Assembly (NCBI RefSeq): GCF_003334765.1
Contig: NZ_QOWT01000061.1
DNA: 7,246 nucleotides
Reading direction: 5' to 3' (one strand)
Origin: Escherichia coli
GTDB taxonomy: Bacteria > Pseudomonadota > Gammaproteobacteria > Enterobacterales > Enterobacteriaceae
A program made the position numbers and the translations under genes. This document shows, piece after piece, positions 802 to 960 of the stretch. The number at the start of each line of letters is the position of its first letter. Positions within the stretch are counted from its first letter, which is position 1. Under the pieces are notes generated by a model. The model was not told the DNA's origin, did not search any database, and worked only from the letters and a program-made list of their open reading frames with translations.

Positions 802-960
802 GTTTTTTCTCTCCCGAACAGATGGATATGTGAATCATATCCGGAATATTCAAAGCACCGGGGGTGTGCATATGTTTAGTATAGGCAGATGCTAGGCATC
901 TGTATAGCCGTAGCATATGTAGATGCAAGGCATATGGATATGTTTAGCATATCTATATTT
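802..960 (-). promoter_or_regulatory. Putative vapBC promoter/operator region
   Basis: Perfect 7-bp inverted repeat GGATATG(N5)CATATCC at 824-842, 22-40 nt upstream of the vapB start. Palindrome CAGATGC-TAG-GCATCTG at about 886-902. Several CATATG and ATATGTTTAG repeats between 868 and 952. No exact -35/-10 is assigned. Confidence 0.4.

Follow-up and report, generated by a model that had tools for sequence, protein, structure and literature searches.

A head-to-tail array of candidate operator units overlaps the predicted promoter of a plasmid-borne vagCD-type vapBC operon

The window, i.e. the whole stretch of 7,246 nucleotides of Escherichia coli DNA analysed in this study, is a plasmid maintenance region according to its list of open reading frames and to profile searches. 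The minus strand carries the toxin gene vapC (vagD, 146-574), which encodes a PIN domain according to the open reading frame list and the NCBIfam VapC models, and the antitoxin gene vapB (vagC, 571-801), whose product of 76 amino acids has an N-terminal DNA-binding domain of the AbrB/SpoVT type. Beyond the 5'-flank of vapB follow ccdA and ccdB (1395-1920), a gene for a ResD-like tyrosine recombinase (1921-2730), a ParA-type partition operon (3781-2868, minus strand) and a ParM-type partition operon (4010-5378). The E. coli IncFIA/FIB plasmid pE1246_1 is 99.5% identical to the window over the tested stretch. In the divergent intergenic region between the two partition operons (3782-4009) a separate set of repeats was found, namely CTCARATTGAGTATT and ATKTRTGAAGTATGA, each occurring twice, and several TCATATTT/AAATATGA inverted repeats. 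These are probably the centromere or operator sites of the two back-to-back partition systems. Further downstream, umuC lacks its 5'-end, the match in the window (5410-6171) covering profile positions 164-414 of 422, and is followed by fragments of an IS3-family transposase (6604-7243). The truncated gene and these fragments together suggest an insertion or deletion scar.

The vapB and vapC genes constitute an antitoxin-first bicistron in which both genes are encoded on one strand and overlap by 4 nt. The operon is transcribed leftward, and the strand relevant for the 5'-flank of vapB is the minus strand. The antitoxin scored 94.2 bits with the family model NF040493 (TA_anti_VapB), above the curated cut-off of 60, and its best matches in the PDB were the VapB chains of 6IFM, 3ZVK and 3TND. 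The toxin aligned to VapC models over its full length (E = 1.8e-35 and 4e-31), its scores of 122 versus 140 and 108 versus 143 bits staying below the curated equivalog/subfamily cut-offs (tRNA(fMet)-specific). By these matches the vapC product is clearly recognizable as a PIN family protein, and the assignment of the upstream region as the regulatory region of an operon for an AbrB-type VapB and a PIN VapC is supported. The start of vapC is ambiguous. It may be the GTG at 574, giving 142 amino acids as in the copy of the S. Dublin plasmid, or the ATG at 547, giving 133 amino acids, where PGAP begins the vapC copy of pE1246_1. The VapC family models align from residue 9-10 only, and in many relatives VapC has 138 amino acids. 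The ATG of vapB (801-799) is preceded at a distance of 7 nt by the Shine-Dalgarno sequence GGGAGAG (809-815, minus strand), which is kept in the same sub-lineage.

Upstream of vapB, the minus strand from 953 to 869 is made up of five 17-bp units joined head to tail with a strict 17-bp period, each of them consisting of two CATATG-like hexamers 11 bp apart with a 5-nt spacer in between. The profile used for scoring these units was seeded from a consensus of our own choice, hence its scores are descriptive and non-independent; they amounted to 15.5 for the distal unit 1 (GATATGCTAAACATATC, 937-953), 21.6 for unit 2 (CATATGCCTTGCATCTA, 920-936), 20.7 for unit 4 (CAGATGCCTAGCATCTG, 886-902) and 18.0 for the proximal unit 5 (CCTATACTAAACATATG, 869-885). 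Unit 3 (CATATGCTACGGCTATA, 903-919) obtained a score of 5 in the in-register parse of the array, to which unit 5 also conforms. TRF reported the same stretch as a period-34 array at 870-952. An A/T-rich tract (954-975, CCGATAAAAAAGAAAGAAATAT on the minus strand) adjoins unit 1, and at the distal end of long arrays in relatives it is kept as a GAAAAAGAGAGAA-like sequence. A sixth unit of the operator type, GATATG-N5-CATATC with hexamers 11 bp apart, is located between the array and the gene in the form of the inverted repeat GGATATG-N5-CATATCC (824-842, readable on either strand). Unit 1 is an inverted repeat of the same type, sharing 83% identity with it over 23 nt at a distance of 112 bp.

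Several of these elements had already been noticed in a first-pass annotation made from the sequence. It correctly described the perfect 7-bp inverted repeat at 824-842, separated by 8 nt from the Shine-Dalgarno sequence, and the palindrome CAGATGC-TAG-GCATCTG at 886-902, which is identical to array unit 4. The decamer ATATGTTTAG does occur twice as reported, with its second copy at 938-947, but the first copy is found at 870-879, one position off; such a pair was not observed in 200 shuffled sequences. The claim of at least four CATATG repeats did not hold, as exact CATATG is present three times in the region (869, 914 and 931). Its total of four in the window is not unusual either, since 45 of 200 shuffles reached this number. 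If variants with one mismatch (GATATG, CATATC, CAGATG and CATCTG) are included, the region contains 9 CATATG-like hexamers. What had been overlooked is that the repeats form a strict head-to-tail 17-bp array in register with a promoter.

The units are clustered much more strongly than could be expected by chance. When up to two mismatches were allowed, the pattern CATATG-N5-CATMTS matched the window 16 times compared to 2.4 +/- 1.8 expected matches, a number reached by none of 200 shuffles, and 10 of the 16 matches fall in 825-953. The inverted repeat at 824-842 taken alone means little, because perfect 7-bp inverted repeats with a loop of 3-8 nt are not rare in the window (12 compared to a shuffle mean of 2.85). 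An isolated match with one mismatch (CATATGATGTCAATATC, 1450-1466) inside the ccdA coding sequence is within chance for the window. Three open reading frames overlapping the array (779-928 and 876-1028 on the minus strand, 889-1050 on the plus strand) were dismissed as coding sequences, since relatives differ there by multiples of 17 bp. This variation of the unit number in 17-bp steps rules out a coding function of the array.

For comparison, we collected 80 loci with VapB homologues of 65-93% identity from one-genome-per-species contigs as well as six plasmid loci; as these loci are phylogenetically related, the locus counts given here do not represent independent events. The promoter scan of 560-1450 identified a sole sigma-70-like site on the vapB strand, TATACA-N17-TATACT (906-878), with the -35 hexamer at 901-906 and the -10 hexamer at 878-883. 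This predicted promoter sits inside units 3 to 5 of the array. Its -35 hexamer corresponds to the second hexamer of unit 3 in altered form, its 17-bp spacer is filled by unit 4, its -10 hexamer lies within unit 5, and the predicted transcription start at about 871 falls in the second hexamer of unit 5. Both the -10 and the -35 are thus overlapped by operator-like units (919-869). Both hexamers were letter-identical and their spacing was invariant in 46 loci, including relatives in which the sequence between them is unrelated, which speaks for a promoter and against homology of the repeats. The copy on the S. Dublin plasmid, too, has TATACA-N17-TATACT as its only promoter-like match. TATACA agrees with the -35 consensus at 4 of 6 positions, which we count against our model.

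The first-pass annotation had proposed an autoregulatory operator with the inverted repeat as its central part and had regarded the upstream repeats as surplus that may provide extra protein-binding sites. The kind of element appears to have been recognized correctly, and related plasmids indeed retain the additional repeats as further elements resembling binding sites; the homologous promoter in these plasmids, which should have lacked them had the annotation been wrong, carries them as well. The inverted repeat, in contrast, does not seem to be the central part. Since -35, spacer and -10 sit inside units 3 to 5, it is the apparently extra upstream repeats that form the core.

The association of hexamer pairs with vapB extends well beyond close relatives and amounts to a phylogenetic footprint. 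In 78 loci, the density of 11-bp pairs of CATATG-like hexamers was 9.55 per kb within 200 nt before vapB compared to 0.035 per kb elsewhere, an enrichment of about 270-fold, and 71 of these 78 loci have a hexamer pair at 10 or 11 bp. Such pairs are also present upstream of vapB in Azotobacter, Azomonas and Burkholderia, where the rest of the promoter could not be aligned. Azotobacter and Azomonas possess two CATATG-N5-CATATG units on either side of a -10, and the Burkholderia relatives have TTGACA-N16-TAGAAT in place of TATACA-N17-TATACT with two hexamers within the spacer. The N-terminal DNA-binding segment of VapB (MRTVSIFKNGNNRAIRLP) is nearly invariant among the relatives, and the N-terminal variant found in Burkholderia (NARNQ) goes together with a hexamer spacing of 10 bp.

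The role of the inverted repeat at 824-842 had to be reconsidered on this basis. Its half-site geometry fits the unit, as expected if VapB or VapBC used it as an operator, but it is probably not the core operator. Of 85 loci, 13 possess the repeat, the arms being conserved among them and the loop variable, and 72 lack it. Counted from the predicted transcription start, the repeat occupies about +30 to +48, in the predicted 5'-UTR. Its place downstream of this start, which belongs to the only conserved promoter, and its absence from so many loci suggest that it is a lineage-specific extra site instead. With 6.5 bits on the descriptive unit profile, compared to 15-22 for the array units, it is a weak match, which also counts against our model.

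Alternatively, this inverted repeat might be the main operator, covering the real promoter with TTGAAT (852-847) as -35 in the manner of vapO1 in mvpAT, the upstream repeats then being accessory. TTGAAT-N17-CATATC can be read in the window, and the repeat is located just 5' of the ribosome-binding site like vapO1 in Shigella. An alignment of the mvpA promoter likewise sets vapO1 over the repeat, with CCCGGT and CATATCCAC common to both, but it is dominated by three close relatives and was not convincing. On the other hand, CATATC matches the -10 consensus at 3 of 6 positions only, and in the closest sub-lineage TTGAAT is replaced by ATGAAC in combination with a 3-nt insertion, so that both hexamer and spacing are unconserved. 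Furthermore, the loci without the inverted repeat cassette retain TATACA-N17-TATACT. A second promoter at TTGAAT (852-847) was discarded, as neither its sequence nor its spacing is conserved and the promoter scan did not report it, and a main operator at this place is, in our estimation, quite improbable.

We also attach little probability to the idea that the repeat acts in the RNA, where a 7-bp leader stem-loop in front of the Shine-Dalgarno sequence would affect mRNA stability or translation in place of a DNA operator function. The minimum-free-energy fold of the leader does form the corresponding stem, and other relatives have unrelated short hairpins (GGCCGGTCGGCC, GGGCCATGAGGCC and GGGAATACTCCC) at the same leader position. 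However, this fold was no better than those of shuffled sequences (z = -0.72, equalled by 43 of 200 shuffles), and the Rfam search yielded no match for the leader and only a meaningless CrcZ fragment at 1200-1259. Changes in the arms seen in relatives (AGATATG in L010 and CAGATCC in L033) are uncompensated. Moreover, the arms correspond exactly to the hexamer type and the 11-bp spacing of the DNA units and duplicate the distal unit 1. The 5'-leader of the vapB family, between the -10 and the vapB ATG, turned out to be modular, with at least four unrelated cassettes at one position in the loci L009-L059. Most of these cassettes hold a short hairpin, either one of the three mentioned above or the GGATATG...CATATCC inverted repeat, and the promoter and the vapB gene are conserved while the cassettes swap.

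The number of units is highly variable. An array is common to the window, pE1246_1, pO145 (L002) and the S. Dublin plasmid (L004), and the close relatives L005, pO145, the window and the S. Dublin plasmid possess 3, 4, 5 and 7 units, respectively. Counted by a loose chain rule and therefore approximate, unit numbers ranged from 0 to 11 across all loci and from 3 to 11 in plasmid-type modules, and large contigs (at least 300 kb) mostly have 0-2 units, with a few reaching 3-7. According to the unit signatures, we infer that units 1 to 5 of the window correspond to units 1, 2, 5, 6 and 7 of the 7-unit form, unit 3 matching unit 5 of the 7-unit arrays; this correspondence implies a 34-bp deletion. 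The longest array, with 11 units, was found in L037 (contig of Enterobacteriaceae MGYG-HGUT-00110). Within it, a 34-bp double unit (CATATGCCATGCAGATG CATAYCCTGAGCATCTG) is present in three nearly identical copies, pointing to a recent expansion that appears to have proceeded in two-unit steps.

This variability raises the question whether the units distal to the two or three overlapping the promoter are functionless products of neutral slippage or unequal crossing-over. Such an origin would account for the differing unit numbers of close relatives and would agree with the fact that one or two units suffice in most large-contig relatives. The 7-unit array, however, is orthologous in eight diverged loci. 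Among these arrays, 69 of 84 hexamer columns but only 5 of 35 spacer columns are invariant (Fisher p = 3.5e-12); kinship among the eight arrays inflates these column statistics, whereas the contrast between hexamers and spacers is internally controlled within the same sequences. Since each unit has retained its own hexamer variant while the spacers have drifted across the eight diverged loci, the distal units appear to be under purifying selection and not to result from recent slippage. We regard the neutral explanation as unlikely.

On the side facing ccdAB, the vapBC module is bounded by an inverted repeat with two GATC sites, AGATCCG-N14-CGGATCT (977-1004), which lies outside the operator. 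A nested palindrome, CTTTTTTATCGGA-GA-TCCGAAAAAAG, is found at 964-990, and CGGATCT occurs once more at 1190-1196. Sequence matches to the vapBC module end at about 992 and those to the ccd/oriV1 module start at about 976. Homology with the F plasmid starts at this junction repeat, with pifC on the other side in F. RepFIA of F has been defined from nucleotide 45922 and opens with two rfsF sites, the targets of ResD (PMC4398462), and in IncR plasmids vagCD adjoins rfsF (PMC9412624). The coincidence of the module junction with the start of the F homology and the rfsF placements in RepFIA and IncR plasmids suggest that the repeat at 977-1004 is probably an rfsF (ResD) site and a point of module swapping.

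This neighborhood could mean that the array is bound by another protein, as accessory ResD/rfsF sites or as iterons of a replication origin or a partition centromere. The array adjoins the probable rfsF site, and all 25 loci with an adjacent GATC inverted repeat hold at least three units, an association that can also reflect the shared ancestry of the plasmid-type module. In F, by contrast, the same junction repeat occurs next to pifC without any array. Hexamer pairs also accompany vapB in chromosomes as well as in Burkholderia and Azotobacter, with no rfsF, ccd, rep or par gene in the vicinity, and the unit pattern is absent from the par intergenic region of the window, which has different repeats. 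We consider binding by such a protein highly improbable. The identity as iteron or centromere was rejected, as vapB and the repeats are inherited together in all settings, chromosomes included, and no rep gene is adjacent.

In enteric VapBC systems, two operators overlap the -10 and the -35, and each is bound by one octamer. In this VapB4C4 complex two AbrB-type VapB-dimer domains project and contact adjacent major grooves of each operator. VapC strengthens the binding of VapB, and an excess of VapC breaks the binding and induces transcription (all PMC3384007, PMC3378870). The comparison with vapO1/vapO2 was based on vapBC of Salmonella LT2 and mvpAT of Shigella pMYSH6000 and the F plasmid (Winther & Gerdes 2012, PMC3378870; Dienemann et al. 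2011, PMC3384007). Both the window and these systems combine an AbrB-type VapB with a PIN VapC and have operators or operator-like units over the -10 and -35 of the promoter, which is a predicted one in the window, and the half-sites of the Shigella operator oligonucleotides (GATATAC...CATATCC) have an ATAT core like those of the window. The differences concern the arrangement. Instead of two separated operators, the window has five contiguous units and one additional unit in the predicted transcribed leader, and its half-sites are spaced by 11 bp compared to about 13 bp in the Shigella oligonucleotides. Furthermore, the half-sites in the window are self-palindromic hexamers, which makes each unit a direct repeat and an inverted repeat at once, unlike vapO1 and vapO2. 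The window system would work in the manner of vapO1/vapO2 but does not belong to that operator family.

The first-pass annotation had named pMYSH6000 mvpAT and the Salmonella vapBC as the promoters to be aligned. They belong to a different VapB lineage, however. Homology to mvpAT was rejected, as its operator oligonucleotide matches only the F-type vapBC of the traD-traI region and VapB shares 28% identity with MvpA. Likewise, vapBC2 of pSLT was excluded as a relative, since it is of the mvpAT type and located in trbH (PMC5065971). By sequence comparison, mvpAT and the LT2 vapBC are thus analogues of the system described here and not homologues. Its true relatives are the vagCD modules of the S. 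Dublin virulence plasmid and of IncF and IncR plasmids, which share the gene family and the module with the window; VapB is 84-93% identical in many Enterobacterales. Identity in the gene and its upstream region as well as the neighboring rfsF and ccdAB indicate that the window system is a member of this vagCD module family, in which the S. Dublin array has 7 units instead of 5. The 174-bp region matched 1,954 of 72,556 plasmid records, and under none of the 25 plasmid matches listed does the array region carry a feature annotation. In the literature searched we found no description of a vagCD operator, promoter or operator array, although an older one may exist.

Other toxin-antitoxin promoters also comprise several operators. 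The F ccd promoter contains multiple CcdA sites bound by alternating chains of CcdA2 and CcdB2. Like the window, it is a plasmid toxin-antitoxin promoter with several short palindromic hexamer sites, and its toxin bridges antitoxin dimers. Unlike it, ccd relies on a ribbon-helix-helix antitoxin and open chains, whereas VapBC forms closed octamers and the window has a strict 17-bp array. The hipBA promoter possesses four operators, and DNA binding protects the antitoxin from Lon. It resembles the window as a multi-operator promoter, but its four palindromes are spaced rather than contiguous and its repressor is of the helix-turn-helix type. Hence, the region at 824-953 seems to represent a known kind of element, an autoregulatory toxin-antitoxin operator, in an unusual and unannotated multi-site form.

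Taken as a whole, these comparisons make it likely that a vapBC operon of the vagCD type is autoregulated through 824-953 as its promoter-operator region, with the hexamer-pair units as candidate operators. We infer that VapB or VapBC would recognize a palindromic hexamer of the sequence CATATG or a similar one. With a centre-to-centre distance of 11 bp, the two hexamers of a pair would lie in neighboring major grooves on the same side of the helix and make up a single operator unit of 17 bp. If the solved complexes from Shigella and Salmonella are taken as a guide, each unit may accommodate one VapB4C4 hetero-octamer, which would dock with its two AbrB-type VapB-dimer domains. Occupation of the proximal units would exclude RNA polymerase, because the sigma-70 promoter is built into units 3 to 5. 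A complex on the leader repeat at 824-842 may act as a roadblock or form a bridge to the distal unit 1 of the same type, and the distal units could provide cooperative or extra binding capacity. Excess VapC would then release the complex as in conditional cooperativity. Against this model we count that a step of 17 bp turns adjacent units by about 223 degrees round the helix and that the octamers are as large as 100 kDa, which may prevent them from sitting on neighboring units at the same time. The literature searched yielded no binding, footprint or transcription-start data for the vagCD lineage.

Another proposed role of the distal units of plasmid-type arrays is that of a plasmid-borne VapBC reservoir which would be dispensable for repression. 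It was derived from the finding that promoter-bound VapB of an mvpAT-type system is shielded from Lon (PMC11796401). An array of 5 to 11 units would keep a stock of antitoxin safe from Lon for as long as the cell retains the plasmid and no longer; upon plasmid loss the docking sites would be gone and VapB exposed, resulting in faster and more reliable post-segregational killing. If true, this would explain why most large-contig (chromosomal) copies have one or two units and modules adjacent to rfsF have 3-11, as well as the purifying selection on the distal units. We consider this role a speculative one that is unlikely to be correct.

Among the addiction modules found on IncF, IncR and virulence plasmids in E. 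coli, Salmonella and Klebsiella, vagCD is one of the most common. For vagCD our analysis provides a likely promoter, a simple putative recognition code of CATATG pairs at 11 bp, and a series of naturally occurring arrays ranging from 1 to 11 units. This series is suited to asking how the operator number tunes conditional cooperativity and how it affects the protection of the antitoxin from Lon and plasmid stabilisation. Should the promoter-operator array prove to be only a redundant operator, the result would be an ordinary one and still a useful annotation. Data from mvpAT and the LT2 vapBC should not be expected to transfer directly to the vagCD lineage. The published vapO2 oligonucleotide of pMYSH6000, compared with a Shigella locus (L007) and with F (L008, NC_002483.1, about 91.9-92.7 kb), is 100% identical in 867 plasmids, F among them. 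In F, the mvpAT-type vapBC is located between traD and traI, and the final 2 nt of the oligonucleotide lie within the annotated 3'-end of traI.
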